Shown piece by piece: positions 4,022 through 50,883 of a stretch of 64,000 bases of DNA. Location of the stretch: contig CAZHBA010000049.1 of assembly GCA_964530225.1 (NCBI GenBank), forward strand, positions 847 to 64,846. The letters are read 5' to 3'. The position numbers were made by a program, and so were the translations under genes. The notes below the pieces were generated by a model. It did no database searches. It was not told the origin of the DNA and saw only the letters and a program-made list of their open reading frames with translations. The stretch comes from an uncultured Rhodospirillaceae bacterium (GTDB taxonomy: Bacteria; Pseudomonadota; Alphaproteobacteria; UBA6615). Position 1 is the stretch's first letter; each line of letters opens with the position of its first letter.

Positions 4022-4607
4022 GGCCCAACCTTAGCGGGGATGCACGATTAGTCGCTAAAACTTTCGTCAAGTTTTGGCCAATCAAGGGCAAAAGTCTAAG
4101 CGATCCTGCGTGACTTTCCCCCTATGGCCGGTATCCTCTGTGCTGTAAAAGTTTATTCAGGTATGTACGGACAGGCGTGGAGGCTTGCTAGTACTCGGCC
4201 AGTTTTCATGCTGTTTTTCGGGTAGGAGTACCTATTTATGGCTGTAATACCTAGTGGTCCCGTATCAACCTTCGTTCTCGATGCGTCACCGTGGCCGACG
4301 CCTGAACCACCAACCGCAATGCAAGCGGATAACCCGAGCGAGGCGGTAACGCCACCTTCGACGGGTACTGCTGTGTTGCCGGAACAGCCGCGCGACCAGC
4401 ACGTCGATATATCGGTCTAATCGGGTCCGCCCGGCATTTGCCGGGCAATATATAAATACAGATCAACCGCTACGTGGTTGCCCGCGCGTACGGTTGATTC
4501 TGTTTTGCGCCCCGCCAATTTGACTGGCGGCAACAGAATTTATTCCAATTTACCGCAATAGGCTCTAGGGTCCGCCCGCATTCAAACTGACTGGTGATTT
4601 GGGGTAG

Positions 4608-9653: not shown

Positions 9654-9689
9654 AGTGACTTCCTTATCGTCTTATTTTTTGGGCCGGAA

Positions 9690-10892
9690 TTAGCTCTGGT
9701 AGTAGCCCGCCAGAGCCTCGGCAATTCGTAGTTTGGCGTCAGTGCTGCCGTCGCCGGTGTGCAGGAACATCCGCGTGTCGTGTATGTATTTCTGCGGCGG
9801 CATGTCGCGCATAACACCCATGGCGCCGAAGCATTCGGCGGCATCCTTGGTCGCCCGATAGAGCTGCTGGGCGGTTGCCACCTGAGCGATCCTGGTCAGC
9901 GGCAGGTTGGACAGGCTACCGTCGGCCTGTGCTTCGGGGTGGTCGCTGGCCCACGCTGCCTGCCAGATGGCGCTGCGCGCGGTTTCCAAGCTGACGGCGA
10001 CACCGGCTAGCTTAGCGCCAATCGCCTGGTGTTCGATGATTGGCCGGCCGCCTTGGATTCTGATTTTGGCGTAGTCCACAGCCGCTTCGAAGGCGGCTCT
10101 GGTGACGCCAAGATTAATCGCTTGGGCAATCGGTGAGCCGCCGACGGCACCGATACCCAACCCGGTGCCGTTGGCCTCGAGCAAATTCTCAGCCTGTACC
10201 TGGCAGTCGCCAAGCGTTACCTCCCCGCATGCGCCGTGGTACCAGCCGCCGTCACGGTCAATCTCGTCCACCAAAAGTCCGGGCGCGTCGTGCGGCACCA
10301 GAAACAGGCCGGTGCCGGAGCCGGTCGTCGCCTCGACGACAAACAGCTTGGCAATGGGCGCGTTAGCGATACGGTGCTTAGTCCCGTTCAACACCCAGCC
10401 GCCGTTGGGTGCGTTCGCTGCGGTGGTTTCGAAGGTTCTCTCTTCGGAAACCGGGCGGTGGTAGTTAATGCCCAGCGCAGTGTCAGTACCCAGCTCGTGG
10501 CTGGCTATTGCCAGGTGAAAGCTGTTGTCGTCAAGGAGCGCGGGCAGGAAGCGTTCACGCTGCTCGTCGCTCATCAACCGGCCGAACAACTGGCCGCCCA
10601 ATGTGGCGGTTTCCATCAGCACCGAGGCCACATCGACATCGCCGGCAGCCAGTTCCTCGGCGACTAGGCAACAGGTCAGCGTATCGGCACCGGCACCGCC
10701 CACCTCCTCAGTCAGCGCCAATGTGCGCAGACCAAGCTCGGCGGCGCTGTCGATCATCTCAACTGGCAAGGGCGGGTCGAAGGGTTCAAGCCGATCCGGG
10801 TGGATCGCGGCAGGGGTTATTTCCTGGGTGACAAAGTCACGGACGGTGTCGCGGATTGCGAGCTGTTCCTCGCTTAGATGAAGATCGTACAT
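9690..10892 (-). CDS. acyl-CoA dehydrogenase family protein (partner 1 of a tandem pair)
   Basis: 400 aa ACAD fold. The YEG-equivalent region reads HTGDGS. It sits 36 nt upstream of the second ACAD on the same strand. Confidence 0.8.
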   Translation of the reverse strand: MYDLHLSEEQLAIRDTVRDFVTQEITPAAIHPDRLEPFDPPLPVEMIDSAAELGLRTLALTEEVGGAGADTLTCCLVAEELAAGDVDVASVLMETATLGGQLFGRLMSDEQRERFLPALLDDNSFHLAIASHELGTDTALGINYHRPVSEERTFETTAANAPNGGWVLNGTKHRIANAPIAKLFVVEATTGSGTGLFLVPHDAPGLLVDEIDRDGGWYHGACGEVTLGDCQVQAENLLEANGTGLGIGAVGGSPIAQAINLGVTRAAFEAAVDYAKIRIQGGRPIIEHQAIGAKLAGVAVSLETARSAIWQAAWASDHPEAQADGSLSNLPLTRIAQVATAQQLYRATKDAAECFGAMGVMRDMPPQKYIHDTRMFLHTGDGSTDAKLRIAEALAGYYQS

Positions 10893-13400: not shown

Positions 13401-14519
13401 TCAGGGCTGCGCGCGCGGGATTAGCCAGGTCACGTGGCCCATTTTACGTCCTGGCCGGGTTTCGGCCTTGCCATAGAGATGCAGCCGTGTCGCCGGATCG
13501 GCGAGATACGTCTGCCAATTGTCCACATCATCACCGATGAGGTTTTTCATCGTCGCGTCGGCGTGGCGTTCGGTCGAACCCAGCGGCAGGCCGCAAACCG
13601 TGCGCACCAGTAATTCGAATTGACTGATTGCGCAGGCGTCGATGGTCCAATGCCCCGAATTATGCGGTCGCGGCGCGATTTCGTTGACCAAAACACTTCC
13701 GTTCCGCGCCACGAACATCTCGACCGTAAGCAGGCCGACGATTTCAAGGTTTTCGATCAACCGCCGCGCAACGTTGGTCGCGGCGGCGGCAGTGTCGCCA
13801 GAGATTGGGGCCGGCACAGTGGTTTCAGCAAGAATGTGATTGGCGTGGCGGTTCTCGACCGGAACGTAACTGGCTTGGGCGCCGTCGGTTGCGCGCGCAG
13901 CAATGACCGAGATTTCCCGCTCGAACTCGATGAAACCTTCGAGAATGGCGCCGCCAGTGGATATCCCGGCGCCGGAGTTGGCCCAGGCCGCATCCAGATC
14001 GGTGCTGGGCTCGATGCGAACCTGTCCTTTGCCGTCGTAGCCCAGGCGCGCTGTTTTCAATATTGCGGGGGTGCCCAGGTTGGCGACCGCACTGGCCAAT
14101 TCGCAACTGTCGGTAATAGCGTGGTAAGGCGCCGTGGCAATGCCGGCAGCAGTAACAAAATCCTTTTCCTTGACCCGGTCTTGGGCGATCGCCAACGCAC
14201 CAGAGTTCGGCCGCACGGCAATACGCGCTTCGAGATATTCGACGCTTTCCAGTGGGATATTTTCGAACTCCAGTGTCGCCACATCGATGTCAGCGGCGAA
14301 TCGGTCAAGGGCGCCGGTATTCTCGAATGTCGCGATGGTAGTTTGGTGCGCGACCTGCGCCGCCGGTTCATCGGGCGATTGGCAAAAAACGTGGCTGCGG
14401 TAACCGAGCTGGGCTGCCGCGGTCGCCGTCATGCGGCCGAGTTGGCCACCGCCGATAATGCCGATAGTGGCACCCGGCGCGAACACTGCTGGCGTATCAC
14501 TACCGGGCATAACGGTCAC
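13401..14519 (-). CDS. purK: N5-carboxyaminoimidazole ribonucleotide synthase
   Basis: 372 aa ATP-grasp. [12 protein letters not shown] start and PurK-type C-terminus. Overlaps purE by ATGA. Confidence 0.9.
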
Positions 14520-26368: not shown

Positions 26369-28165
26369 ATGTCCGATACCGAAGTAGGCGCGCCACCGCG
26401 TCGCGATATACGCTTGTTGCGGCGGCTCGGCAGATTTTTACGGCCCTACCGATGGCAGGCCGTGGCGGCGCTGGTTGCTTTGACCGTAGCGGCGGCCACG
26501 GTGCTGGCTGTGGGCGAGGGCATTCGGCGTTTAGTCGACGAAGGATTTGCCGCCGGCAATTCGGAATTACTCAATGACGCGTTGCTGGTCTTGCTTGTGT
26601 TCATCATATTTTTGGCGTGCGCGACCTATGCGCGGTTTTTTATCGTTTCGTGGATCGGCGAGCGCGTCGTTGCCGATATCCGTAAGGCGGTATTCGATCA
26701 TGTGCTAACCCTCAGTCCTGGATTTTATGAAACCACCCGGGTCGCCGAGGTAATGTCACGGCTAACCGCAGATACGACACTTTTGCAGACGGTCGTTGGA
26801 TCGTCGGCGTCGATGGCGTTGCGCAACCTGCTGCTGTTTTTCGGTGGTTCGGTCATGTTGACGGTTACCAGCCCGCGGTTGAGCGGGCTTGCGGTATTGG
26901 TGGTACCCTTGGTGCTGGTACCGATCATCGTTTATGGCCGCCGTGTGCGACGGCTTAGCCGGGCCAGCCAGGACCGGGTTGCTGATGTCGGTGCGTATGT
27001 CGACGAAAGCGTCGCCCATATCCGCACGGTTCAGGCCTTCGTTCACGAAGCTGTCGATAGGATGCGGTTTGCCGATCGGGTTGAGGATGCGTTCGTGACC
27101 GCGGTGCACCGTATTCGCGCGCGCGCCTTGTTGACTGCGGTTGTCATCATGTTGGTTTTCGGCGCTGTCGGAATCATCATGTGGTATGGTGGCCACGATG
27201 TTATTACCGGGCGTCTCAGCGTCGGCGAGTTGTCGGCGTTTATCTTCTACGCGATCATTGTTGCCGGTTCGATGGGCGCTATTTCCGAAGTCATCGGCGA
27301 CCTGCAACGCGCAGCGGGCGCTACCGAGCGGCTGTTCGAGTTGCTCGACATGACGACCGATATTGCCGTTTCGGTTCATCCGGTGGCGTTACCGGTGCGC
27401 GTGGAGGGCCGCGTGAGCCTGGTTGACGTGTCGTTTTGCTACCCCTCGCGGCCGAACCGGCCGGCCCTCGACAGTTTTTCGCTAGATGTGGCGCCGGGCG
27501 AGAGATTGGCTTTGGTGGGGCCGTCGGGTGCTGGCAAGACCACTGTATTCCAATTATTGTTGCGCTACTACGATCCTCAGAGTGGGACGCTGGCGCTCGA
27601 CAATATAGACCTGCGAGATCTTGACCCGACGGAATTACGCAGCCAAATCGGCGTCGTGCCTCAGGAACCGGTTATCTTTTCCGCCGATGCGTGGGAGAAC
27701 ATTCGCTATGGCCGGCCCAACGCCTCGGACGACGATGTCCGTGCGGCCGCCGAGGCGGCGGCAGTGACCGAATTTCTTGACCGTTTACCCGAGGGCTTTG
27801 CGACATTCTTGGGCGAAAAGGGTGTGCGCCTGTCGGGTGGGCAACGCCAGCGCGTTGCCATCGCGCGTGCCGTTTTGCGCGACCCGAAAGTCTTGTTGCT
27901 CGATGAGGCTACAAGTGCGCTCGATGCCGAAAGCGAGCAGTTGGTGCAGGGCGCCCTCGACAGGCTGATGAAAGACCGGACGACGATTGTTGTCGCTCAC
28001 CGGCTGGCTACCGTCGTTGCTGCCGACCGAATTTCTGTGCTCGACCAGGGCCGCCACGTTGGTTCCGGCACCCACGAGGAGCTAATAGGGCAGGGTGGAG
28101 TTTATGCGCGCCTGGCGGCGCTGCAATTCGGCATCAACGGTACCGCCGACGCGGCCGCACAGTAG
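26369..28165 (+). CDS. ABC transporter permease/ATP-binding fusion protein (MsbA-like exporter)
   Basis: 598 aa. Six-TM N-terminal domain. Walker A GPSGAGKTT, ABC signature LSGGQRQR, Walker B LLLDEATSALD, H-loop. Confidence 0.9.
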   Translation: MSDTEVGAPPRRDIRLLRRLGRFLRPYRWQAVAALVALTVAAATVLAVGEGIRRLVDEGFAAGNSELLNDALLVLLVFIIFLACATYARFFIVSWIGERVVADIRKAVFDHVLTLSPGFYETTRVAEVMSRLTADTTLLQTVVGSSASMALRNLLLFFGGSVMLTVTSPRLSGLAVLVVPLVLVPIIVYGRRVRRLSRASQDRVADVGAYVDESVAHIRTVQAFVHEAVDRMRFADRVEDAFVTAVHRIRARALLTAVVIMLVFGAVGIIMWYGGHDVITGRLSVGELSAFIFYAIIVAGSMGAISEVIGDLQRAAGATERLFELLDMTTDIAVSVHPVALPVRVEGRVSLVDVSFCYPSRPNRPALDSFSLDVAPGERLALVGPSGAGKTTVFQLLLRYYDPQSGTLALDNIDLRDLDPTELRSQIGVVPQEPVIFSADAWENIRYGRPNASDDDVRAAAEAAAVTEFLDRLPEGFATFLGEKGVRLSGGQRQRVAIARAVLRDPKVLLLDEATSALDAESEQLVQGALDRLMKDRTTIVVAHRLATVVAADRISVLDQGRHVGSGTHEELIGQGGVYARLAALQFGINGTADAAAQ

Positions 28166-28177
28166 ATGGATATCGCT

Positions 28178-29509
28178 CTAGCGCTGCGTCAGTTTAAATT
28201 CGATGCGCCGGTTGCGCCGGTAGGCGATTTCGTCATCTCCCGCGTCCAAGGGCTGGTACTGGCCGAAGCCGGCGGCGACTAGGCGGTTCGGCGGAATACC
28301 CTGTTGGATAAGAAACTTCACGACCGAGGTCGCCCGCGCCGAAGATAACTCCCAGTTTGATGGGAACTGTGCGGTGCTGATTGGGCGTACATCGGTGTGG
28401 CCATCGACCCGCAAAACCCAATCGAGTTCGCCTGGGATATCGCGGGAAATTTGCACCAAGGTTTGCGCTAATTGTACCAGCTGCTGGCCACCGGCTTCGT
28501 TGAGCTCAGCCGCGCCCGAGGCGAACAGGACTTCTGATTGGAAGACAAAGCGATCGCCGACGATACGGATGTCGGAGCGGTTGCCGAGCACTTTGCGCAG
28601 GCGGCCGAAGAATTCAGAGCGATAGCGGGCGAGTTCTTGAACCCGCGTGGCCAAAGCCGCGTTGAGACGTTTGCCAAGGTTTACGATCTGGGTATTTTGC
28701 GCCTCGTTTTTCGATTCTGAAGCTTCCAGCGCCTCGTTCAACGCCGCGAGCTGGCGGCGTAACTCGCTTAGCTGGCGGCTGAGCAATGACACTTGGCGCT
28801 GGGCCTGTTCGGACAAGGAGCGTTCCTCAGTGAAAGACTTTTCAGCGGTTTCCGAGCGTTGCAGTAGTTCGGCGAGGCGAATATCACGCTCCTCAACTTC
28901 TTTTTGTGCCAGTACCGTACGCTCGCGTTCGTCGGCGAGTTTTGCTTCCAGCTCCTTAGCTCGGTCGCGAACCTGGCTGAGTTGTTGTTCGCTTTGGTGT
29001 AGCGACGACGCGAGGCCGGCGACTTTTTGCTCTAACTTGTCGCGCACGGTGCGCAGAGCGGCGATATCTCTATTGAGGCGTTCCAGGTCGCGCAGTTGCA
29101 GCTTAATCGACTCCTTGTCGGTGGATATAACTCGATTGAGGTCTGCCACTTCGGTCATCCGTCCGCGCCGCTCACTTTCTAATTCCTCTTCAACATCCGA
29201 TAGTTTGGCGACCAGCGCGTCGCGCTCCGAGACCGAAGTCTGGAGTTGCGACGACAATTGCGCGATCGAGATCCGCAGATCGGCATTAGCGCTACGCTCC
29301 AAATCGAGTATCTGCGCCAGCTCGTCGAGTTCGCTGGTTAGCCTCTCGAGCACGGTATCGCGGCCCGACAACGCCTCCGACAGAAAAACCTGGGCGAGTG
29401 CGAACACCATGATCAAGAAGACCACCACTACCAGCAATGCAGCTAGGGCGTCGACAAAACCAGGCCAGTAATTAACGGTACTGTATCGGCGAAAGGCGGT
29501 ACCAGGCAT
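28178..29509 (-). CDS. MotB/OmpA-family protein with conserved stator-type Asp in the TM segment, ~250-aa coiled-coil linker and C-terminal OmpA-like peptidoglycan-binding domain
   Basis: 443 aa. N-terminal TM NYWPGFVDALAALLVVVVF matches the MotB/TolR/ExbD plug motif, with Asp. Residues ~50-300 are heptad-rich (LERLTSELDELAQILDLER...). C-terminus VDGHTDVRPI...NWELSSARATSVVKFL...NRRIEF is a canonical OmpA_C motif. Confidence 0.8.
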   Translation of the reverse strand: MPGTAFRRYSTVNYWPGFVDALAALLVVVVFLIMVFALAQVFLSEALSGRDTVLERLTSELDELAQILDLERSANADLRISIAQLSSQLQTSVSERDALVAKLSDVEEELESERRGRMTEVADLNRVISTDKESIKLQLRDLERLNRDIAALRTVRDKLEQKVAGLASSLHQSEQQLSQVRDRAKELEAKLADERERTVLAQKEVEERDIRLAELLQRSETAEKSFTEERSLSEQAQRQVSLLSRQLSELRRQLAALNEALEASESKNEAQNTQIVNLGKRLNAALATRVQELARYRSEFFGRLRKVLGNRSDIRIVGDRFVFQSEVLFASGAAELNEAGGQQLVQLAQTLVQISRDIPGELDWVLRVDGHTDVRPISTAQFPSNWELSSARATSVVKFLIQQGIPPNRLVAAGFGQYQPLDAGDDEIAYRRNRRIEFKLTQR

Positions 29510-29524
29510 GGCTTGACCCGCGCG

Positions 29525-30670
29525 TTAGCGGCGGCCCTCGCCTTCATCGGAACTGGCCGCGATGGTACGCGCGAGCAGGCGAATTTCGGAGCGCAGTTCC
29601 TGAACCATTTGTGAGCGACCGCTTGCCGACTCTTCGACAAGGCGCGCCAAATAGATGTCGACGTTGCGAATATGGCTTCGGGTCGCGTCGTCGAAGCCGC
29701 CATCTGGACCGTCGGCGAGTTTTTGCAGAACTGGCTGCATGTCGGTCTGCGCTTGCGCTAGCCGTAGCATTAAATCCTGCTCGGTCCGCATCTGATCAGT
29801 CAGGGTGGTCAGACGGTCGGCGAGTACGGACAGCGCAGCATCGGTCTTGCCGCGGGTCGATTCGCCTTGCGCGATGGTGCGTTGCAAATTGTCTAGAGAA
29901 TCAGCGGTGGTCTCAAGCAGGGCCTGGATGTAGGTGGGCACGCTTTGGTCGCCCTCAGCGATGACGCTGGAGCCGCTCGATACCCGTGTCTGGCCGCTCA
30001 GCCACTCTTCCAATTCATTGTAGAACCGGTTCTGCGCTGAGCCCGCCTGCAGGTCGAGGAAGCCTAAAATTAGTGATCCAGCGAGGCCGAACAAAGATGA
30101 GCTGAAGGCCGTACCCATGCCCGCCAGGGGTGCGTTGAGGCCGGTCTTCAGAGAATCGAACACCTGGTTCAGGTCGCTGCCGGTGACTTGCAGGCTGGCA
30201 ATGACATCGGCGACTGAGCGCACTGTCTGCAGCAAGCCCCAGAACGTGCCGAGCAGGCCGAGAAAGATGAGCAAGCCGATGAGGTAGCGCGACAGGTCGC
30301 GTGACTCGTCGAGGCGGGTGCTGATGCCGTCCAGGATCGAGCGCATGGAAAGCGTCGTTAAACTGATCCGCCCACCGCTGCGGTCGCCGAACATCGTTGC
30401 CATTGGCGCCAATAATTTCGGTGTCGCCACAACCGACAGACCTGGCCGGTCGCTACGGTAGGTCTCGATCCAGTTAACCTCGACATTGAGCATCCAGACC
30501 TGGCGGAACACAAACAATATGCCCAACACCAGAACGAAAACGATAACACCGTTTATCGCCGGGTTGGCCATGAACGATTGGAACAGTTGGTTGTACAACG
30601 CGCCCACGGCAGCTGCGGCGATAAGTAGGGATATCGCCATGCGGGTCAGGTAACGTTGCGGGCTGGTCAT
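29525..30670 (-). CDS. MotA/TolQ/ExbB-family proton-channel protein with ~170-aa C-terminal cytoplasmic coiled-coil tail
   Basis: 381 aa. Four predicted TM helices, with the TM3/4 region LGLLGTFWGLLQTV / LAGMGTAFSSSLFGLAGSLILGF typical of the family. The C-terminal 170 aa are rich in heptad repeats. Stop lies 15 nt before the MotB-like start. Confidence 0.8.
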   Translation of the reverse strand: MTSPQRYLTRMAISLLIAAAAVGALYNQLFQSFMANPAINGVIVFVLVLGILFVFRQVWMLNVEVNWIETYRSDRPGLSVVATPKLLAPMATMFGDRSGGRISLTTLSMRSILDGISTRLDESRDLSRYLIGLLIFLGLLGTFWGLLQTVRSVADVIASLQVTGSDLNQVFDSLKTGLNAPLAGMGTAFSSSLFGLAGSLILGFLDLQAGSAQNRFYNELEEWLSGQTRVSSGSSVIAEGDQSVPTYIQALLETTADSLDNLQRTIAQGESTRGKTDAALSVLADRLTTLTDQMRTEQDLMLRLAQAQTDMQPVLQKLADGPDGGFDDATRSHIRNVDIYLARLVEESASGRSQMVQELRSEIRLLARTIAASSDEGEGRR

Positions 30671-30796
30671 GAACTGATCACCGAGGCGGTTGCGCCGAGG
30701 CCGGGGTTCGTTTTGGCGGCGTTGGGAAGTCGATACAGGTATGCGCTATCGTTGGACGGTACTGTGACGAATTTAAGGCAAGTTTAGTTAGCGAGG

Positions 30797-31792
30797 TCAC
30801 CGTTCGACAAGGACTGCGTCGACCCAGTCCGCTGGGCCGCTCTCGGCTTTGTTACCTAACGCGCGTACATCCATACGGGTACTTCGCACACCCTGATTGA
30901 TCAGGAAGGAACGCACCGCCAACGCCCGCGATAGCGATAGGCGCCGCGCTTGGCTGGCAGTCTCCGGCGTACCTTCCGCATATGCCAGCAACTGAACGCG
31001 CAGGTTTTCGCTTTCTTTCATCTTATTCGACAATTCCTGCAGCGGCGCGCGGGCAGAATCGGAAATCTTTGCCGATTTGTCATCGAACATTACCCTTAAC
31101 GATGGCTGGTCGGTGATCACAACGGGACGCGACGCTATTTGTACCGGTGGCGCCGCAACTGGTTTCGTCTCCGTAGGCGGTAGCGCGGCAGATTTAGCTG
31201 CCGCTCGGGGCGGTGGCCGTACGGCGACTGCCACCTTCTCTTGTGGTGCGGGTTCTGGCGCCGGCGCGATTTTCTCAACAGCAAGTGCAGGTTGCGGCAC
31301 GGGAACCGGCGGCACCGGTGTTGGCGCCACAACCGGCGCCGGCGTTCGCTCGGCGACCGGTGGAGGTGGCGCTATGGCCGGGGGGGGTGGTGCAACGGCG
31401 GCTGGCGGCAGTGGCGCAGCTGCTGGCACTGGCGGCGCGAGTACTTGACTGCGTGGTGCCGGAGCCGCGCTAAAACGCCGTTTGGTCAGCGGACCAACCA
31501 GGTTTGAGACCGGTATTGTGGATGGCGGGAACAAGACCGGCGGAGTGATGGCGATGTCACTCGTCACATGTTGTCCGGCCACCGTTGCCGGAAGCCCGAG
31601 CGCATCAAGCGCGCTCATGTTGACAGTAACATTGGTGTCACGCGCTAGAATGTAGCCAGATTGACTGTACGCCGAGGTTGCGGGCAATATGAACGCCAAC
31701 GCAACGCCTAGCGCTGCGGCATAACCATACGTCCGCGAAGTAATTGGTGTCCGCGATGCCATTTTCGCATGTGACGGAATATTGCGGATCAT
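30797..31792 (-). CDS. secreted proline-rich protein with degenerate C-terminal OmpA-like domain
   Basis: Start placed at the internal ATG (MIRNIPSHAKMASRT...), because the 446-aa ORF-track version overlaps suhB. An alternative ATG lies 30 nt downstream. Signal peptide AAALGVALAFILPATSAYSQ, long AP/PV-rich linker, C-terminal ...NLRVQLLAYAEG...RRLSLSRALAVRSFL (OmpA-like). Confidence 0.6.
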   Translation of the reverse strand: MIRNIPSHAKMASRTPITSRTYGYAAALGVALAFILPATSAYSQSGYILARDTNVTVNMSALDALGLPATVAGQHVTSDIAITPPVLFPPSTIPVSNLVGPLTKRRFSAAPAPRSQVLAPPVPAAAPLPPAAVAPPPPAIAPPPPVAERTPAPVVAPTPVPPVPVPQPALAVEKIAPAPEPAPQEKVAVAVRPPPRAAAKSAALPPTETKPVAAPPVQIASRPVVITDQPSLRVMFDDKSAKISDSARAPLQELSNKMKESENLRVQLLAYAEGTPETASQARRLSLSRALAVRSFLINQGVRSTRMDVRALGNKAESGPADWVDAVLVER

Positions 31793-31935
31793 AACCCCCG
31801 GTGTCCTGGAATCGTTTTTAACTGTGGGCGCCTTATTACTCGTGCCCGCCGCAATGGTAAACCCAAGCAGCGGAGCGTTGCACCATAACCTAGCCTTTGC
31901 ACGCGGAACAACTGATTCGAAAGACGGACGGTTTG

Positions 31936-32763
31936 CTAACCGTCTTCTGGTGTTGGGCCCGGGTCGGCGGTGCGAATGCAGCCGAGCAGTCTGTCGTGTA
32001 GCTGGTCGTTCGCTGCGACCACATCGCCGCCGGTCATCATGGTGTTGCGGCCCTCGAAGTCGGTGATAAAACCGCCGGCTTCGCGCACCATTAAAATGCC
32101 GGCGGCGATGTCCTGGGGCGGCAGGCCAAAATGCCAAAATCCATCGACGCGTCCGGCGGCGACATAGGCCAGATCGAGTGCCGGCGCGCCGAAGTCGCGG
32201 ATGCCGGCGGAATCGGCCATGACTGGCGCCAGCGTTGCCAGGTGGCGCGGATGGTCCCCGTGATCAAAGTGCGGCATGCCGGTCGCAATAACGCTGATGT
32301 TTAAATGTTGGCGTGCCGATACCCGCAGGCGCGTGTCGTTGAGGAACGCGCCGGTGTTGCGTATCGCCCAGAACAGTTCATCGCGCAGGGGATCGTAGAT
32401 GATGGCCTCTACCAGGTGACCGTCTTCCTCGTGGGCGATCGACATTGCGAATTGGGGTAGTCCGTGCAGGTAATTTGTTGTTCCGTCGAGGGGGCTGGCG
32501 ATCCAGTGGTGGTTTCCGTCCGGCTGATCGTTGGCGGGCGGGTCGGATGGGCCTTCCACGTCACCGTAAAAGCCGAATTGGGGCCGCGCCTCAGACAATT
32601 CGTAACGCAGGGTTTCCGATGCCTTGCGCGTTGCCGCACCGACAAAGTCCTTGGAGCCTTTTTTAGACACCTGCAATTGCTGCACTTCGCCAAAATCGCG
32701 TGCCATCGCCCGCCCGGCACGCCGCGCGGCGCGGTCCATTACATTGATGATTGGTGAACGCAT
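31936..32763 (-). CDS. suhB: inositol monophosphatase family protein
   Basis: 275 aa. IMPase motifs WIASPLDGTTNYLHG (DPIDGT-like) and a C-terminal WD-containing metal site. Confidence 0.85.
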   Translation of the reverse strand: MRSPIINVMDRAARRAGRAMARDFGEVQQLQVSKKGSKDFVGAATRKASETLRYELSEARPQFGFYGDVEGPSDPPANDQPDGNHHWIASPLDGTTNYLHGLPQFAMSIAHEEDGHLVEAIIYDPLRDELFWAIRNTGAFLNDTRLRVSARQHLNISVIATGMPHFDHGDHPRHLATLAPVMADSAGIRDFGAPALDLAYVAAGRVDGFWHFGLPPQDIAAGILMVREAGGFITDFEGRNTMMTGGDVVAANDQLHDRLLGCIRTADPGPTPEDG

Positions 32764-33413: not shown

Positions 33414-34133
33414 TTAATCGGCCGGCCGGGCCTCGATCATTGCTTTTAGAAATTCGGCTACCGCGGTACCCGGACCCTGCGGGTGGTGCCACACACCGGC
33501 GGAAACGGCAAGAAAATCTGCGCCGGCGGCGACCAGCGGCGTGCAGTTCTCCACTGTAATACCGCCGATCGCCACACACGGCACTTCCATCAGATCGCTC
33601 CACCAGTCCAATAGGCCGGGGCGCGCCGAGGCTTTCGGCAATTTCGTCGTCGTCGGGTAGAACGCCCCGAACGCCACGTAATCGGCCCCGGCCTCGGCGG
33701 CGGTGATCGCCAGATGGCGCGAATCATGACAGGTGACGCCGACAATGGCGTCGCCACCAACGACCCGCCGCGTGTCCTCATAGGGGGCGTCCTCCTGGCC
33801 CACATGAACGCCGCCGCACCCCAGTTCCGCCGCGAGATCGGGCCGGTCGTTCATGATTACCGCAACATCGTGCCCGTGAGCTACCGGCAACAGGGCCTCG
33901 GTGACGCGTCGGATGGCGTCATTTGGCACCGGCGTGTTGTCTGGATTCTTGAGGCGTATTTGCAGGCAGGCTACATCGCCGGCGCTGAGGGCCTCGGTCA
34001 GTGCGTCGATAAACACCGGCAGCGCATTGTCGTCGAGGTTCGCTGGCGTAATCAGGTAGAGCCGGCAGGCGTTACGTGGTTCCTTGGCCAATGAACTTGG
34101 CTCAGAATTTGCCTTGGTAAATCCGCACGACAT
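33414..34133 (-). CDS. thiE: thiamine-phosphate synthase
   Basis: RLYLITP..., VHVGQED, GGI... ThiE motifs. The annotated ATG overlaps the fbaB 3' end by 32 nt, so the start is uncertain. Confidence 0.75.
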
Positions 34134-45346: not shown

Positions 45347-46078
45347 ATGGAAGCCAATATTATTGAATCAGTCGCGATAACGGGGGGCGCCAGTATCACC
45401 GATTTTTCGGTCTGGGCGCTGTTTCTGCGGTCGGACAATATCATCAAGTTAGTCATGGTGGTGCTGTTTCTCGCATCGTTCTGGTCGTGGACGATCATCA
45501 TCGACAAGTGGTTACGGGTGCGCCGCCTCGACCGCGAAGCTCGCCGGTTCGAGGAAAGTTTCTGGTCGGGTGGATCGCTGGACGAGTTGTACGAAATCTA
45601 TGGTGCCCGTCCGGTCGACCCCATGTCGGCGGTATTTGCCGCGGCCATGACCGAATGGCGACGATCGACCGAGCGCGGATTGTCGAAGACCGTGGCGCTA
45701 CACGCCAATCTGCAAGACCGCATCGAGCGGGTCATGGACGTGACCCTAAGCCGCGAGATGGAGCGTATTGAGCGCTATTTGGTGTTTCTCGCTTCTGCTG
45801 GGGCGACGGCGCCGTTCATCGGCCTATTTGGAACGGTGTGGGGCATCATGAACAGTTTTCAGGCGATCGCTGTGGCCAAGGACACTAGCCTCGCCGTTAT
45901 CGCGCCAGGCTTGGCGGAAGCCCTGTTCACCACCGCCATGGGCCTCATCGTCGCGATACCGGCGGTCGCCGCCTACAACAAGTTCAGCACTGATATGAAC
46001 CGCTACGCCCAGCGCCTCGATGGGTTCGCTGCCGAGTTCACCGCCATCTTGTCGCGTCAGCTCGAAGAGGCGAAATAG
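45347..46078 (+). CDS. tolQ: Tol-Pal system protein TolQ
   Basis: MotA/TolQ/ExbB family. Three TM segments. LASAGATAPFIGLFGTVWGIM motif. Confidence 0.9.
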   Translation: MEANIIESVAITGGASITDFSVWALFLRSDNIIKLVMVVLFLASFWSWTIIIDKWLRVRRLDREARRFEESFWSGGSLDELYEIYGARPVDPMSAVFAAAMTEWRRSTERGLSKTVALHANLQDRIERVMDVTLSREMERIERYLVFLASAGATAPFIGLFGTVWGIMNSFQAIAVAKDTSLAVIAPGLAEALFTTAMGLIVAIPAVAAYNKFSTDMNRYAQRLDGFAAEFTAILSRQLEEAK

Positions 46079-46081
46079 GCG

Positions 46082-46525
46082 ATGGCGCGCAGACACGTCA
46101 GATCCAACCTGCGCCGGCCGGGCGGTGGGCCGGTGACCGACATCAACGTGGCGCCGTTCGTTGATGTCATGTTGGTGCTGGTGATCATTTTTATGGTTGC
46201 TGCGCCGTTGCTGAATATTGGCGTGCCGGTCGATCTACCCAAAGCCACCCTTAAGCCGCTCAACGAAAGCCAGGATCCGCTGGTTGTCACCGTCGACGGC
46301 GAGGGAAATATTTTCATCCAAGAAGCGGCAGTTCCGGAACAAGCCTTGGTGCCAAGGCTTAGAGCTTTGTCGAACGTCAACAAAGATTTGCGCATTTTCG
46401 TTCGCGGCGACCGCGCCATTAATTATGGCCGGGTCATGCAGGTCATGGGGATGGTTTCCCGGGCTGGATTTTCGAAAGTCGCGCTGATCGCCGAGGCTCC
46501 CCTGCCCGGCGAAACCGTCAAATGA
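46082..46525 (+). CDS. tolR: Tol-Pal system protein TolR
   Basis: ExbD/TolR. DINVAPFVDVMLVLVIIFMV TM segment with Asp. Confidence 0.9.
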   Translation: MARRHVRSNLRRPGGGPVTDINVAPFVDVMLVLVIIFMVAAPLLNIGVPVDLPKATLKPLNESQDPLVVTVDGEGNIFIQEAAVPEQALVPRLRALSNVNKDLRIFVRGDRAINYGRVMQVMGMVSRAGFSKVALIAEAPLPGETVK

Positions 46526-46546
46526 GTTGAGGCGGACGGCTTTGCA

Positions 46547-47422
46547 ATGATGGGTTCTTCCAACATGCGCAACGGTGTTTCTATGTCCATTAGCGCCCAT
46601 CTGCTATTGGTGCTGTTTGCACAGTATGGGTTACCCAACCTGTTCACGCCGCGCGATGTATCAGTGGTCACCATCCCCGTCGAAATTGTTACTGACGAGC
46701 AACTCAATGCGCCACCGCCGCCGGCTACGCCGGAACCCAAGCCGGAACCAAAACCCGAAGCCGCGCTACCGCCACCCCCACCTGAGCCGGAAGTGGTAGA
46801 GGCGCCGCCACCCCCGCCTGAGCCGAAATCCAAGCCGGAAGTGGTAGAGGCGCCGCCCCCGCCGCCAGTCGAAAAACCCAAACCGCCGAAAAAGAAAGAA
46901 CCGCTAAAACCGAAACCGACCCCCCCGGCGAAAGCGGAGCCGCAGTCAAAACCCAAACCGCCGAAAAAGCCGAAAAGTTTTGCCTCGGTATTGAAAGATC
47001 TCGACAAGCTGGAGAAAAAATCGACGCCGAAAGTAAAAAAAGAGGCGGCACCGAAGGACAATAATAAACCGGCGCCCGATCGACAGATTCCCGAGCAGGC
47101 GTCGATTACGGAAATCGAACGTCTGAAGCAGATAATCCGCCGGCAGATCGAGCCCTGTTGGAGCCCGCCGGTCGGGGCGGCGGAGGCTGAAAACCTGGCG
47201 ATTACCATTTTTATCCGTGTTGACCGAAAGGGCTTTGTACGTGAAGCGCGTGTGATTGATGCGCCGGCGATGGCGCTGAATACTTATGTCCAAGCGGCGG
47301 CCGACGCCGCGCGGCGGGCGGTGCTCAATCCGCGGTGCCAGCCCTTCCAGTTACCGATTAAACGTTATGATTTGTGGAAAGAAATAAGGTTTAATTTCGA
47401 CCCCAGGGAGATGTTGAGTTAG
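46547..47422 (+). CDS. tolA: cell-envelope integrity protein TolA
   Basis: N-terminal TM, PEPKPE/PPPP repeat linker with 27-nt direct repeats, and a C-terminal TolA-III-like domain. Confidence 0.75.
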   Translation: MMGSSNMRNGVSMSISAHLLLVLFAQYGLPNLFTPRDVSVVTIPVEIVTDEQLNAPPPPATPEPKPEPKPEAALPPPPPEPEVVEAPPPPPEPKSKPEVVEAPPPPPVEKPKPPKKKEPLKPKPTPPAKAEPQSKPKPPKKPKSFASVLKDLDKLEKKSTPKVKKEAAPKDNNKPAPDRQIPEQASITEIERLKQIIRRQIEPCWSPPVGAAEAENLAITIFIRVDRKGFVREARVIDAPAMALNTYVQAAADAARRAVLNPRCQPFQLPIKRYDLWKEIRFNFDPREMLS

Positions 47423-47424
47423 CC

Positions 47425-48777
47425 ATGCTGTCACAAACTAAGAAATTCCTACGCCGGTCAGCGAGTGCACTGGTGGTCGTTGCCGTGTTCGCACTGCCCA
47501 CAGCCGCTGCTGCGCAGCTGACGATCGACGTGACTTCGGGTACGGTCGAGCCGCTGCCGATCGCGGTTCCTGATTTCATTGCCCAAAGCCCCGACGCGCG
47601 GCAAGTTGCTACCGACATCACTTCGGTGATCGCCGGTGATTTAGAGCGCTCAGGCTTGTTCGCGCCGATCGACAAGGGCGCCTTTTTGTCTCGGCCGGCG
47701 GCGCTGGCGGTGCGGCCCAACTTCGTCAATTGGAAGCCGCTGAACGCCCAGGCCCTGATTATCGGCGAAACGAAGCTATTACCCGGCGGCCAACTGCGCA
47801 CCGATTTTCGCTTGTGGGATGTGTTCGCCGAACAGCCGATGACAGGGCTCAGCCTGTCGACTTCTCCATCCAATTGGCGCCGTGTGGCGCACATTATCGC
47901 CGATGCAATTTACGAGCGCATCACTGGCGAGCGCGGCTATTTTGATACTAGGATCGTTTATATTTCCGAGACTGGCCCGCTCGAACGGCGGGTCAAGCGG
48001 CTGTCGATAATGGACCAGGACGGGGCCAATCACCGGTTCCTGTCCGACGGTGGTACGCTGGTCCTAACGCCGCGATTTTCGCCGACCCAACAAGAGATTA
48101 CCTACCTCGCCTACTTCAACGACCAACCGCGGGTGTACCTGTTCAATATCGATACCGGTGAACAGGAAGTGCTCGGTGATTTTCCCGGCATGACCTTTGC
48201 ACCACGGTTTTCGCCCGACGGTAACCAAGTGATTATGAGCTTGGCTGAAAACGGCAACTCGGATGTTCACGTCATGGATTTGCGTACGCGACGGGTTCGG
48301 CAGTTGACCAAGCATCCGGCAATCGACACCGCACCGAGTTTCTCGCCTGACGGCCGCCACATAGTGTTCGAATCGGACCGCGGCGGCAGCCAGCAACTCT
48401 ATGTCATGGATTCCGACGGCGGCAACCAGCATCGCATCAGCTTTAAATCGGGTGGCCGTTACGGTACGCCGGTGTGGTCGCCGCGCGGCGACCTGATTGC
48501 CTTCACCAAAATACAAAGCGGTCTGTTTCATATTGGTGTAATGCGGCCAGATGGCAGCGGAGAACGCCTGTTGACAAGGGGTTTTCTGGTGGAGAGTCCC
48601 ACTTGGTCGCCCAATGGCCGGGTGCTAATGTTCTTCAAGCAGGATAAATCGGACGATAAGGGACGAGGGCGTAATTCGCGGCTCTATTCGATCGATCTGA
48701 CCGGCCATAACAAACGTGAAATAATTACGCCGGTCGAGGCATCAGACCCGGCTTGGTCGCCGGCGAGTTCACGTTAG
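47425..48777 (+). CDS. tolB: Tol-Pal system beta-propeller protein TolB
   Basis: 450 aa. Signal peptide, and WD40-like repeats FSPDG...FxSDRxG. Confidence 0.9.
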   Translation: MLSQTKKFLRRSASALVVVAVFALPTAAAAQLTIDVTSGTVEPLPIAVPDFIAQSPDARQVATDITSVIAGDLERSGLFAPIDKGAFLSRPAALAVRPNFVNWKPLNAQALIIGETKLLPGGQLRTDFRLWDVFAEQPMTGLSLSTSPSNWRRVAHIIADAIYERITGERGYFDTRIVYISETGPLERRVKRLSIMDQDGANHRFLSDGGTLVLTPRFSPTQQEITYLAYFNDQPRVYLFNIDTGEQEVLGDFPGMTFAPRFSPDGNQVIMSLAENGNSDVHVMDLRTRRVRQLTKHPAIDTAPSFSPDGRHIVFESDRGGSQQLYVMDSDGGNQHRISFKSGGRYGTPVWSPRGDLIAFTKIQSGLFHIGVMRPDGSGERLLTRGFLVESPTWSPNGRVLMFFKQDKSDDKGRGRNSRLYSIDLTGHNKREIITPVEASDPAWSPASSR

Positions 48778-49020
48778 AATTAGAAACAAACTTCAAATAA
48801 AGACGCTGATAATGCTGCCAATTTCCTATGCTTGGCCGGACTTTTTTTTTGCTTCGAATCATCGCCTACAGTATAGTTCCTGCGCAATTAAGCGGTCGGA
48901 GATTGTGAGTTGGGGTGGTGTGCGCTCAATTCGGTGCTGTACAGTACAGTCTCGCTTGAAATTAAGTGATGTGTCCGAACACAAAAGCATCGGACAGCAA
49001 CGGCTTTTAAGGAGTCTGCG

Positions 49021-49545
49021 ATGAGATTAAATCTTCCAGTGGTTGTCGCGGCCGCGTTTCTTCTAGCAGCGTGTTCGACCGCATCGGACGAAGGGGCGGA
49101 CTCGGGTAGCTCGGGTAGTAGTGGTGCTTCAACGTTTTCAGCGCCATTCCAAGAGCAGGTGGCTACACCATCGGGGCCAAAGCCTGGCACGTCACTCGAT
49201 CTCGAGGTTAACGTCGGTGATCGGGTATTTTTCGATTTTGATAAGTCGACACTTAGGCCTAACGGGCGTACCACGATAGAACGCTGGGCGGCTTGGCTTA
49301 AGACCTACCCAGCCAACAAGCTCATGATCGAAGGCCATGCTGATGAGCGTGGCACCCGCGAATATAACTTGGCGCTGGGTGAGCGTCGGGCGAACGCATC
49401 GCGCGAGTATCTGATCTCATTGGGGGTCGACCCCAACCGGGTGAAGACAATCAGCTATGGCAAGGAACGGCCGGCTATTCCGGGCTCGAATGTGAACGCT
49501 TGGGCCCAGAACCGCCGTAGCGTAGCTGTCCTCGATAGTAATTAG
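49021..49545 (+). CDS. pal: peptidoglycan-associated lipoprotein Pal
   Basis: Lipobox LLAAC. OmpA_C motif EGHADERGTREYNLALGERRA. Confidence 0.9.
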   Translation: MRLNLPVVVAAAFLLAACSTASDEGADSGSSGSSGASTFSAPFQEQVATPSGPKPGTSLDLEVNVGDRVFFDFDKSTLRPNGRTTIERWAAWLKTYPANKLMIEGHADERGTREYNLALGERRANASREYLISLGVDPNRVKTISYGKERPAIPGSNVNAWAQNRRSVAVLDSN

Positions 49546-49603
49546 ATTGGTTGCGGCGCCCCGGTTCACCGGGACGACCGCCTTTCAAAGCGTGCGTTGA
49601 CAC

Positions 49604-49641
49604 CCTCGGCTGTATCCACCAGCCGGGGCCGTTTTGTTTTG
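49604..49641 (+). terminator. intrinsic terminator after pal
   Basis: CCTCGGCTG-N7-CAGCCGGGG 9-bp stem (one G-U pair) followed by CCGTTTTGTTTTG. Confidence 0.55.
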
Positions 49642-49752
49642 ATTGCCATAGTTTTGCCGAATTACCTGAGCAGATTACGCACGCATGATTGACGTTGGCG
49701 TTGAACTTGCGCATATCGGGAATCTGAAAACGAACTATCTAAGGACGGTGCC

Positions 49753-50883
49753 ATGATTGCACCTCTATGCCAGCCCATTTCTGTACTAAATCGCCGATGG
49801 TTGGGTCCGGCGCTCGCGATCGCCATCGTTGCCGCCACACCGATGCTAAGTGCGGCACCAGCAGGGGCGCAGTCGAACGATGTACAGTCACTGGTGAATA
49901 CGATCGAACGCCTGGCGCGGCAGTTACAGACGCTCGAACGCAGAGTATATCGCGGTGGAACGCCGCCTGCCGGGTCTGCTACGAACCCGTCCGTTAGCGG
50001 CTCGCCGCCGCCGGCTGCGGTATCGCAGCTGCAATTGAAATTCAGTCAACTCGAAGAGCAAATGCGTAGCATGACTGGGCAGATTGAGGAATTGGGCTTC
50101 AAAGTCAATCAGATCTCAACCCGGCTAGATCGTCTGGTCGCTGATGTGGACTTCCGTTTGCACGCGTTGGAAGGGTCTGGGGGACGGCCCAATACGGTCC
50201 AGGGCGTCACCCCAAGTGCCGTTCCGGGCGCACCCGCGCCGTCGGTACGCGTGCCATCGGGTCCGCCGGTTGCACCGCGCCGGGCGCCGCAGGTTGGTGG
50301 CGTTGTCGTCAATCCCGAGGGCGCACCGGGCCCGTCGCTAAGAATCGGCACACTGACCGAGAGCCAAATCAAGGCAGCTGGCATCACGCCTTCTGACCCC
50401 GGAACAGGCGCTATGGCTAGCGCAAGTTCGGGAATTGATCAGACTACTCCCCAACAGGCGACACCGGGCGCTGGCGACGCCTCGGGTTTGCCCCCGGGTA
50501 CGGCACAAGAACGCTACAATTATGCCAGGGGGTTTCTGCTTCGGCGTGACTTCGCCGGCGCTGAGAAATCGTTGCGGGCGTTCGTCGAAACCTATCCGGA
50601 TGACGTGCTGGCGGGTAATGCGCAATACTGGCTTGGCGAAACATTTTATGTCCGCGGCGATTTCGGCACTGCCGCTCGTGCCTTCGCTATCGGCTTTCAA
50701 CGCTATCCCAACAGCAGCAAGGCGCCCGACAATCTGCTCAAGCTCGGCATGTCCCTGGCCGCGCTCGAGCGCACCGAGGATGCTTGCATTATCCTGAAGA
50801 AGTTGTCGAAAGAGTATCCCAAGGCGCCGACCAATATAATGAAGCGCGCGGAAACGAAACGCATCCGCCTCAAATGCAAGTGA
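49753..50883 (+). CDS. cpoB: Tol-Pal-associated cell-division coordinator CpoB/YbgF (TPR)
   Basis: Signal peptide, coiled coil and C-terminal TPR repeats (NAQYWLGETFYVRGDF...). Confidence 0.8.
   Translation: MIAPLCQPISVLNRRWLGPALAIAIVAATPMLSAAPAGAQSNDVQSLVNTIERLARQLQTLERRVYRGGTPPAGSATNPSVSGSPPPAAVSQLQLKFSQLEEQMRSMTGQIEELGFKVNQISTRLDRLVADVDFRLHALEGSGGRPNTVQGVTPSAVPGAPAPSVRVPSGPPVAPRRAPQVGGVVVNPEGAPGPSLRIGTLTESQIKAAGITPSDPGTGAMASASSGIDQTTPQQATPGAGDASGLPPGTAQERYNYARGFLLRRDFAGAEKSLRAFVETYPDDVLAGNAQYWLGETFYVRGDFGTAARAFAIGFQRYPNSSKAPDNLLKLGMSLAALERTEDACIILKKLSKEYPKAPTNIMKRAETKRIRLKCK

Follow-up and report, generated by a model that had tools for sequence, protein, structure and literature searches.

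We analysed a three-gene module in a stretch of 64,000 nucleotides (hereafter the window) from contig CAZHBA010000049.1 of an uncultured Rhodospirillaceae bacterium, whose genes, in the order C-A-B on the minus strand, encode a secreted accessory protein (C), a channel subunit (A) and an axle subunit (B). At a probability that we put a little above even, A and B belong to the ion-driven motors built from five A and two B subunits (5:2 motors), as a chromosomally encoded type with a housekeeping role that is distinct from flagellar stators, the Tol/Ton systems and the defence system Zorya. We place the pair in this superfamily because A has the appropriate fold, the genes are paired, and the transmembrane (TM) aspartate of B as well as polar and proline residues in TM3 and TM4 of A are invariant. 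Conservation and genomic context further suggest that A-B is coupled to the proton motive force (PMF), has 5:2 stoichiometry and works independently of flagella. An initial annotation of this DNA had likewise proposed a distinct PMF-coupled envelope machine, and the proposal is supported: no orthology of A-B to a characterised system was found, the coiled coil of B is predicted to lie outside the cytoplasm, and the conserved Asp is not missing.

Fold and profile evidence clearly assign the MotA/TolQ/ExbB transmembrane fold to A. Searches of the PDB with the sequence of A, or with a profile built on it, returned coiled-coil noise only and no chain, so that fold searches were needed. When the AlphaFold2 (AF2) model of A was used in Foldseek (mean predicted local distance difference test score, pLDDT, 62.4, corresponding to moderate confidence; A and B were both predicted as monomers), the top matches were exclusively ExbB, TolQ, ZorA and MotA, with target-normalised TM-scores of 0.4-0.54 to the known motors and with ZorA showing the highest sequence identity among them (18%). 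Alignment by hhalign of a profile of 35 diverse A members with the TolQ encoded in the same window gave a probability of 91.6%, the GLLGTFWG motif being aligned. Hydrophobic helices in A span residues ~7-30, 37-60, 126-150 and 184-207 and are followed by a 174-aa tail of two long helices. TM2 and TM3 of A superpose on TM1 and TM2 of TolQ (FLGLLGTFWGLLQT versus FIGLFGTVWGIMNS), and A is therefore a three-helix TolQ/ExbB/ZorA core with an extra N-terminal TM helix; of the four-TM MotA/TolQ/ExbB channel first described, the four helices and the fold family hold, but the architecture is really that of the three-TM class with one helix added.

In A, TM3 bears LGLLGTFWGLLQT, which includes T142, and TM4 bears P181 followed by GMGTAFSSSLFGL; there is no variation at G141, T142, W144, G145, T149, P181, M185, F189 or G195 among 35 sequences that are 35-57% identical to A of the window. 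The catalytic Asp of ZorB contacts a Thr in TM2 and a Ser in TM3 of ZorA (PMC11946911), of which T142 and S190-S192 in A would be the obvious counterparts. The tail, initially described as a cytoplasmic coiled coil of ~170 aa, indeed comprises two long helices with strong coiled-coil-type hydrophobic periodicity at 3.5-3.67 residues (power of 15.0 at 3.5 residues for residues 244-320), and its length is conserved in the family (median 157 aa, 5-95% range 132-172).

B has a single hydrophobic TM segment containing WPGFVDALAALL, which reads W-P-G-F-V-D(20)-A-L and in which all 75 orthologues keep W15, G17 and D20; the motif is also present in Sinorhizobium meliloti. Alignment thus upheld the conserved Asp of the 'plug/Asp' motif proposed earlier, but not the plug, since B gave no match to Pfam MotB_plug and neither a plug nor a flexible linker is evident. 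At its other end, B matches Pfam OmpA (residues 328-434, E = 5.7e-15) with a peptidoglycan-binding signature (GHTD, N385, LS and R392) that is invariant in the 75 orthologues, as befits the canonical OmpA domain first noted. Foldseek with the last ~160 residues of B aligned 157-161 columns with the MotB-like DVU_2228 (3khn; TM-score 0.80), MotS, PomB and Helicobacter pylori MotB, and these stator-type structures ranked above Pal, OmpA and ZorB. The short Arg-rich N-terminus, the lone TM helix and the C-terminal peptidoglycan-binding domain agree in predicting that the intervening coiled-coil rod is periplasmic, as had been supposed, since the C-terminal domain must be periplasmic. B is a member of NCBIfam PRK09039 (NF006542-NF006546), scoring 442.6 against a cutoff of 305 for NF006543, 402.2 against 362 for NF006544 and 398.9 against 372 for NF006545, and the S. 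meliloti orthologue bears the same product name. PRK09039 is a naming model that carries no function, partner or mechanism, and the family was thus already known under a generic database name only. Two Pfam families precomputed on B homologues (PF24161 and PF23649) were not reproduced at E <= 10 in our local Pfam copy.

The gene pairing is that of the motor superfamily. A is followed by B after 15 nt in the window, in agreement with the three co-directional open reading frames (ORFs) and the gap reported initially, and after 2 nt in S. meliloti, and the order is kept in related loci; the gap between C and A in the window is 126 nt. Adjacent A and B genes, a four-TM A and a TM Asp in B are also what flagellar stators (MotAB, PomAB, MotPS) have, and the peptidoglycan-binding domain of B is nearest to their expanded MotB/PomB/MotS type. 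These likenesses, together with the names 'flagellar motor protein MotA' and 'chemotaxis protein MotB' that databases attach to some homologues, would fit an auxiliary stator of the flagellum in the form of a divergent MotAB- or MotCD-type paralogue, which we nevertheless regard as extremely improbable. In flagellar stators, at least four helices between TM2 and TM3 make up a torque-generating domain (PMC12505986), whereas the corresponding loop of A (residues 62-125, 64 aa) has a single short helix (88-94) in the AF2 model, at pLDDT 44-52; B has no Gly/Pro-rich linker and, unlike in the stators, A carries a long cytoplasmic tail and B a long periplasmic rod. A gave no match to NCBIfam MotA and none to TolQ or ExbB at E <= 0.1, and B stayed below the cutoffs of the flagellar models (MotD 107.2 versus 283, MotS 93.3 versus 264, MotB 58.9 versus 250), its matches to MotD and MotS running through the OmpA domain only; TolR and ExbD models were absent among the 25 best of its 50 NCBIfam matches. 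The pair thus lies far under the NCBIfam cutoffs for MotA/MotB/MotS/MotD, TolQ/TolR, ExbB/ExbD and ZorA, as expected if it is, as first claimed, a distinct machine. No fla, che, tonB or exbBD gene was found among 33 scanned ORFs, which include most of the larger ORFs of the window, in line with the earlier statement that fla, che and tonB genes are not nearby, and flagellar context was never seen in 80 related genome loci or in S. meliloti. A-B is not a flagellar stator because the torque domain, the plug and the linker are missing, the scores are below cutoff and flagellar context is absent.

By hidden Markov model (HMM), the closest characterised relative of A-B is ZorAB (EcZorAB, PDB 8qyd; Shewanella, 8vvn), which bears out the loose resemblance remarked on in the initial annotation. 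The best HMM matches were the PADLOC models ZorA1 (E = 1.6e-13) and ZorA3 (E = 4.4e-12) for A, both partial and covering the TM core only, and ZorB3 (E = 3.3e-21) for B; C had no PADLOC match. Like ZorAB, the pair combines a C-terminal cytoplasmic helical tail in A with an invariant TM Asp, an OmpA-type peptidoglycan-binding domain and no MotB-like plug in B. All NCBIfam matches of A were to ZorA subfamilies, at scores far below their cutoffs (ZorA_4 19.9 versus 500, ZorA_2 17.4 versus 100, ZorA_3 12.4 versus 250). The ZorA-like tail, the ZorA-only NCBIfam matches and the identity to ZorA, the highest among the fold matches, would be accounted for by a minimal or degenerate Zorya, a ZorAB-like sensor motor whose effectors lie elsewhere or were lost; we judge this very unlikely. 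The tail of EcZorA spans residues 223-729 (~500 aa), tails are long in all Zorya types, and the peptidoglycan-binding domain of ZorB is fused to its TM helix without a linker (PMC11946911). A, by contrast, has a far shorter tail, an extra N-terminal TM helix and a loop without the Zorya-type beta-hairpin domain in its model (of low confidence there), and B inserts a coiled coil of 155-407 residues where ZorB has none. Genes resembling the Zorya effectors ZorC, ZorD, ZorE, ZorF or ZorG are not adjacent, the flanks being an ABC exporter, C, an inositol monophosphatase (IMPase), elongation factor P (EF-P), ThiE and an aldolase. The locus is a fixed housekeeping one across orders, the opposite of defence-island behaviour, and we found no phage or true-plasmid copies. 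A-B is not Zorya because of the short tail, the rod of B, the lack of effectors, the fixed locus and the unmatched curated ZorA models.

The rod of B, initially given as a coiled coil of ~250 aa, comprises ~265 aa (44-308) that are Leu/Glu/Arg/Ala-rich, with 0 Pro and 6 Gly in the 271 residues from 45 to 315. AF2 (mean pLDDT 73.7) predicts a helix that runs continuously from the TM segment (16-205), a low-confidence stretch (206-221), a second helix (222-308) and the OmpA fold, and the alignment-averaged hydrophobicity of residues 45-308 has one dominant peak at 3.5 residues. Along the orthologue alignment, indels concentrate at window residues ~100-225, while 1-100 and 225-443 are conserved, so that the rod is made up of a conserved proximal zone (44-100, including S48-G49-R50-D51), a variable zone (~100-225) and a conserved distal zone (225-308). 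Across species the rod would measure ~23-60 nm (at 0.148 nm per residue), a 2.6-fold range. Close homologues of B fall into discrete lengths of 436/437, 443, 450, 457, 464, 471 and 485 aa, corresponding to 1-4 copies of a 14-residue tandem unit (EQQLGQVRELAKER-like) plus a 7-residue insertion within the helical region, which indicates recent repeat expansion and contraction inside the coiled coil. The unit lies at ~170-190 in B of the window, and its copy number varies among relatives 66-100% identical, with lengths of 443, 457, 471 and 485.

Despite this freedom in length, the heptad phase is preserved. The spacing from the TM Asp to GHTD ranges over 240-492 residues in 72 orthologues and equals 2 modulo 7 in 58 of the 72 proteins and in 22 of the 31 distinct values (binomial P ~1e-11, corrected for seven classes), with no enrichment for moduli 3-6 and 8-11. 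The exceptions are all offset by +3 or +4, the classic coiled-coil stammer or stutter, and the S. meliloti spacing of 247 fits the same phase. The rod is free in length but not in heptad phase. An antiparallel hairpin, which the AF2 break at 206-221 might have suggested, is disfavoured: the heptad register is constant over ~120-270, straight across the break, and region 171-220 is missing in ~40% of the orthologues, which makes a conserved hairpin unlikely. Most simply, the rod is a single, uninterrupted coiled coil without a flexible linker, presumably a parallel B2 dimer as in the known motors of this class. Just outside the membrane, S48-G49-R50-D51, in which G49 is kept in 68 and R50 in 72 of the 75 orthologues, is a candidate hinge of the rod. 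The variable rod length at fixed heptad phase, and the conserved length of the A tail, are newly described here. In a 2025 survey of MotAB homologues, non-flagellar B subunits were described as devoid of OmpA-homologous domains and as having short, constrained periplasmic regions, and coiled coils were not mentioned (PMC12505986); the A-B family is a counter-example to that generalisation.

The same features bear on whether A-B moves at all. Coiled coils that serve as spacers or scaffolds typically have conserved ends and a free length, as this rod has (155-407 residues); its matches to intermediate-filament, crescentin and SMC models are weak and driven by composition, no partner for a rotating tail is evident, and the presumed S. 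meliloti genes are absent from lists of essential genes. In a static envelope scaffold, B could be a strut tethering the inner membrane to peptidoglycan, or could form a periplasmic lattice or ruler, with A a mere anchor or assembly platform. We hold this to be fairly unlikely: Asp20 of B is kept in 75 of 75 sequences and T142, P181 and GLLGTFWG of A in 35 of 35, which would be unexpected for a passive anchor; burying an acidic side chain in a single TM helix carries a cost that only a function would offset; and in both fold and gene pairing A-B resembles all known motors of the class.

Next, the distribution of A-B is that of a core gene pair. A word-indexed search returned at least 8000 matches to A, and an exhaustive search of 50%-identity representatives gave full-length matches to 592 clusters (E <= 1e-30) or, with the limit at E <= 1e-3, to 2990. 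Named hosts of A and B are almost always alphaproteobacterial (Rhodospirillales, Hyphomicrobiales, Magnetospirillum, Acetobacteraceae, Sneathiella, Nisaea). Exceptions among the host labels are a 'Comamonadaceae' metagenome-assembled genome (MAG), the labels 'Pseudomonadota' and 'Proteobacteria', and a brown-algal record, a B homologue being attributed to Discosporangium mesarthrocarpum; A-bearing MAG contigs labelled Comamonadaceae or 'uncultured Rhizobium' show Rhodospirillales-like synteny. Such odd labels probably reflect contamination or mis-binning of public records. At the 80 genome loci (A 53-89% identical to that of the window) B follows A, apart from two short loci that end before B, and the usual neighbourhood is fba-thiE-efp-IMPase-(C)-A-B.

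In S. meliloti, where A is 46% identical to that of the window, the order is thiE, a Sel1-repeat protein, inositol monophosphatase, A (368 aa, 'MotA/TolQ/ExbB proton channel family protein'), B (342 aa, 'peptidoglycan-binding protein') and a convergent ABC transporter. The purK/purE, thiE, suhB, A-B and exporter genes are collinear between the window (13401-14519 and 33414-34133, both on the minus strand) and the S. meliloti extract (244-1802 and 3767-4420), a block from purK to the exporter that represents unusually long-lived synteny across alphaproteobacterial orders. This shared position implies that the A-B pair and its location predate the split between Rhodospirillales-like and Rhizobiales lineages. 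A had no match in 50,697 phage records and none in true plasmids of PLSDB, where the sole matches were records of 3.5-4.6 Mb (CP090106.1, NZ_CP104131.1, NZ_CP069303.1, NZ_CP104135.1 and NZ_CP104127.1) that seem to be whole Sinorhizobium chromosomes mislabelled as plasmids, since they hold genes for ribosomal proteins and purine biosynthesis; one of them, CP090106.1, has the title pSymB yet holds rpmE, purEK and suhB. A-B behaves as a vertically inherited core gene pair, not as a defence island or a mobile module.

We then considered the third protein. C has no hydrophobic segment besides its signal-peptide-like N-terminus, and its orthologues have comparable hydrophobic N-termini ending in A-x-A|Q. 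The motif V.V[ND].SVLD occurs in 31 of the 31 measurable orthologues, and a Pro/Ala-rich spacer of 176-379 residues lies between the two conserved ends. An alignment with B, Pal and 14 orthologues showed that the Arg of LS..RA is conserved in the OmpA-like domain of C, whereas the Asp position of GHTD (AYAE in the window) is occupied by E, D, Q, A, G or S among orthologues, and this degenerate domain may not bind peptidoglycan. The earlier description of a secreted, Pro-rich protein with a degenerate OmpA-like domain is therefore apt, given the signal-like N-terminus, the Pro/Ala-rich middle and the lost Asp. In 66 of the 73 informative loci the gene immediately upstream of A is C, which the other 7 and the S. 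meliloti locus lack; the gene trio claimed for the window thus recurs at most loci, but C is not universal. The notion that the rod of B and the spacer of C are rulers of one distance was rejected, as the two lengths show no positive co-variation (Spearman -0.30, p 0.10, n 31).

In the Ton and Tol systems, it is by an N-terminal TM helix that TonB and TolA contact the motor. A Pro-rich spacer joined to an OmpA-like domain loosely recalls TolA/TonB plus Pal, and both A-B and the TolQR-TolA-Pal and ExbBD-TonB systems are envelope-linked and non-flagellar. A-B could accordingly be the motor of a Tol/Ton-like energiser with C as force transducer, a TonB/TolA-like spacer with a Pal-like head; the long spacer, the company of C and A-B in most loci, and an MsbA-related, lipid-type exporter as conserved convergent neighbour, also in S. 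meliloti, would all suit such a device. We consider it unlikely. C has a predicted cleavable signal peptide and no TM anchor, it is missing from S. meliloti and some marine lineages that keep A-B, and its spacer does not co-vary with the rod of B; B already has a MotB-type peptidoglycan-binding domain, and no TonB-dependent receptor is nearby. TolR and ExbD lack both this domain and the rod. Moreover, the window has its own Tol-Pal cluster (45347-50883) ~14 kb from the module, in which TolQ, TolB, Pal and CpoB score above their cutoffs, so the genuine Tol-Pal system reported nearby is indeed present; its TolA is a divergent alphaproteobacterial one. A-B does not belong to the Tol/Ton systems because Tol-Pal is separate, an anchored TolA/TonB-type partner is absent and B has a wall-binding domain.

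The MsbA-related ABC exporter (26369-28165, plus strand; TIGR02204, 861.6 versus 780.4) is convergent with B, and the two stop codons are 12 nt apart. The adjacency recurs in ~30 of the 80 loci, and the S. meliloti counterparts (exporter at 9056-10870 of the extract) overlap by 14 nt. It could be plain ancestral synteny, or a sign that the module is functionally tied to the export of envelope lipids.

In S. meliloti, the B orthologue (CAC47355/Q92JX6) is annotated 'hypothetical protein signal peptide', and by their order beside suhB (SMc03994) the A and B genes presumably correspond to SMc03993 and SMc03992. The one mention of the pair that we came across is in a gel-shift screen for DNA binding by ChvI, which recovered an intragenic fragment of SMc03993 (F10; 2991422-2991677 of S. 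meliloti 1021; PMC3687685); ChvI is an envelope-stress response regulator, and the identity of SMc03993 with the A orthologue is presumed from gene order. Neither tag appears in the tables of essential genes from transposon sequencing (PMC5929573), weak evidence that the genes are non-essential. RgsF (SMc03995), an essential polar-growth factor, is a Sel1-repeat periplasmic protein (PMC7327166); its gene lies at 4430-5575 of the S. meliloti CP090106.1 extract, between thiE and suhB and two genes upstream of A-B, the position taken by efp in the window. The Rgs polar-growth proteins were rejected as orthologues of the trio, RgsB, RgsC, RgsD and RgsF having no MotA or OmpA domains, and the Rgs pulldown tables list neither SMc03993/SMc03992 nor NP_386881-NP_386884. 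A paper on the FtsZl1 operon is unrelated to the family. We found no functional study of the A-B family or of PRK09039 in the openly accessible full-text literature.

Several observations weigh against a 5:2 motor. The model of A is of moderate confidence only and its TM-scores are modest; A scores marginally below threshold for Pfam MotA_ExbB (22.2 bits, gathering cutoff 22.9), and its profile finds no PDB chain. The gene neighbourhood offers no evident cytoplasmic partner to the tail, and any role in S. meliloti may be conditional, the presumed tags being outside the essential lists. The distance from inner membrane to wall in Escherichia coli is ~9 nm (quoted in PMC11946911), 2.5 times shorter than even the shortest rod of B, and a rod of 23-60 nm is hard to fit with perpendicular anchoring. 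The puzzle of a rod longer than the periplasm, raised initially, is real, and larger than first stated, given a spread in rod length of about 2.6-fold among species.

We nonetheless prefer a 5:2 motor, which might work as follows. Five A subunits would encircle the two TM helices of B, protons would pass via Asp20 of B and the polar residues of TM3/TM4 in A (T142, S190-S192, with P181), and A5 would rotate relative to B2. The TM helices of B2 are predicted to run without plug or linker into a parallel dimeric coiled coil ending in a dimeric MotB-type peptidoglycan-binding domain, which would make B2 a rigid wall-anchored strut. What moves would then be A5 together with its short, ZorA-like bundle of cytoplasmic helices, and its target would be in the inner membrane or the cytoplasm. 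As a speculation, a long rod lying at a shallow angle and hinged at S-G-R-D could serve as a lever arm against rotation about the membrane normal, and this would reconcile rod length with wall anchoring. C may be a lineage-restricted periplasmic accessory tether. The process served by A-B is likeliest envelope maintenance or envelope sensing.

A bolder reading is that A-B is a fifth functional class of 5:2 motor besides the flagellar, Tol/Ton, gliding/type IX secretion and Zorya ones, an ancient housekeeping relative of Zorya in the alphaproteobacterial core genome in which a rigid, heptad-phased B2 shaft or lever of 23-60 nm with a MotB-type wall anchor links the PMF to a mechanical envelope task as yet unrecognised; we put it forward as a tentative possibility, more doubtful than not. 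The gliding and type IX secretion motor GldLM/PorLM, which is of the 5:2 type, offers a precedent for a B2 axle reaching far across the periplasm, where dimers of GldM/PorM form a long shaft. Globular domains rather than a coiled coil make up the shaft of GldM, which has no OmpA-type peptidoglycan-binding domain; these motors belong to Bacteroidota and have no detectable sequence relationship to A-B. If there were such a fifth class, candidate tasks would be sensing or setting envelope geometry, or aiding MsbA-like lipid export, and the short tail of A5 would represent either what the Zorya signalling tail evolved from or a reduced version of it.

Coordinates of the module and of the Tol-Pal genes are collected in the table. 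The ORF of C, mechanically called, opens with a TTG at 32137, 345 nt upstream of its likely start, and thereby runs into the IMPase gene (31936-32763) at its 3' end, so that automatic callers may over-extend C; a second candidate start is the Met at 31762. On the opposite strand, an ORF at 28647-29471 (plus; 274 aa, Ser/Arg/Cys-rich) is antisense to the coiled-coil region of B and is most likely a shadow ORF arising from the repetitive GAG/CTG/CGC-rich codons of the rod, not a gene. A scan of 27900-32300 for promoter and terminator consensus sequences gave site counts at the shuffle expectation, and operon boundaries were not callable from it. Other scanned ORFs of the window serve core metabolism and cell maintenance, namely lysS, ilvE, purK, metY, GAPDH, transketolase, ruvBC, ftsH, folP and glmM.

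Table. Positions in the window of the genes and protein segments of the module and of the Tol-Pal cluster.
Feature	Position	Strand	Description
Gene B	28178-29509	-	443 aa; MotB/ZorB-like axle subunit; NCBIfam PRK09039, 'peptidoglycan-binding protein'
B residues 309-443	28181-28585	-	MotB-type OmpA-like peptidoglycan-binding domain (Pfam, Foldseek)
B residues 44-308	28586-29380	-	predicted periplasmic coiled-coil rod (AF2, periodicity, indel phase)
B residues 15-43	29381-29467	-	lone TM helix with W-P-G-F-V-D motif (Asp20), after an Arg-rich cytoplasmic N-terminus; hydropathy 3.21
Gene A	29525-30670	-	381 aa; channel subunit of MotA/TolQ/ExbB/ZorA fold
A residues 208-381	29528-30049	-	cytoplasmic helical tail, helices 244-320 and 328-378 (AF2, periodicity)
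A residues 7-207	30050-30652	-	four TM helices and short cytoplasmic loop (62-125) (hydropathy, AF2)
Gene C	30797-31792	-	331 aa from Met at 31792; secreted accessory protein (ORF and start candidates)
C residues 235-315	30848-31090	-	OmpA-like domain, Pfam E = 4.6e-12
C residues 55-63	31604-31630	-	motif V-T-V-N-M-S-A-L-D (consensus V.V[ND].SVLD)
C residues 1-43	31664-31792	-	predicted Sec signal peptide, putative cleavage A-Y-S|Q by reading of the sequence
TolQ	45347-46078		275 versus cutoff 221
TolR	46082-46525	+	125.7 versus cutoff 127.3; nearly as good on ExbD models
TolA	46547-47422	+	weak, 18.7 bits; assigned by position
TolB	47425-48777		above curated cutoff
Pal	49021-49545		above curated cutoff
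CpoB	49753-50883		above curated cutoff

The 5:2 ion-driven motors are few, and each is tied to a major function: swimming, nutrient import, outer-membrane constriction, gliding and secretion, or phage defence. A further widespread member would point to an unrecognised energy-dependent envelope process, in a family present in tractable models (S. meliloti, Magnetospirillum) and in a group that includes plant symbionts. As a non-defence relative with a tail, A-B would also bear on the origin of Zorya, and the rod of B, with its heptad phase kept over a 2.6-fold range of length, is a natural experiment in motor mechanics.

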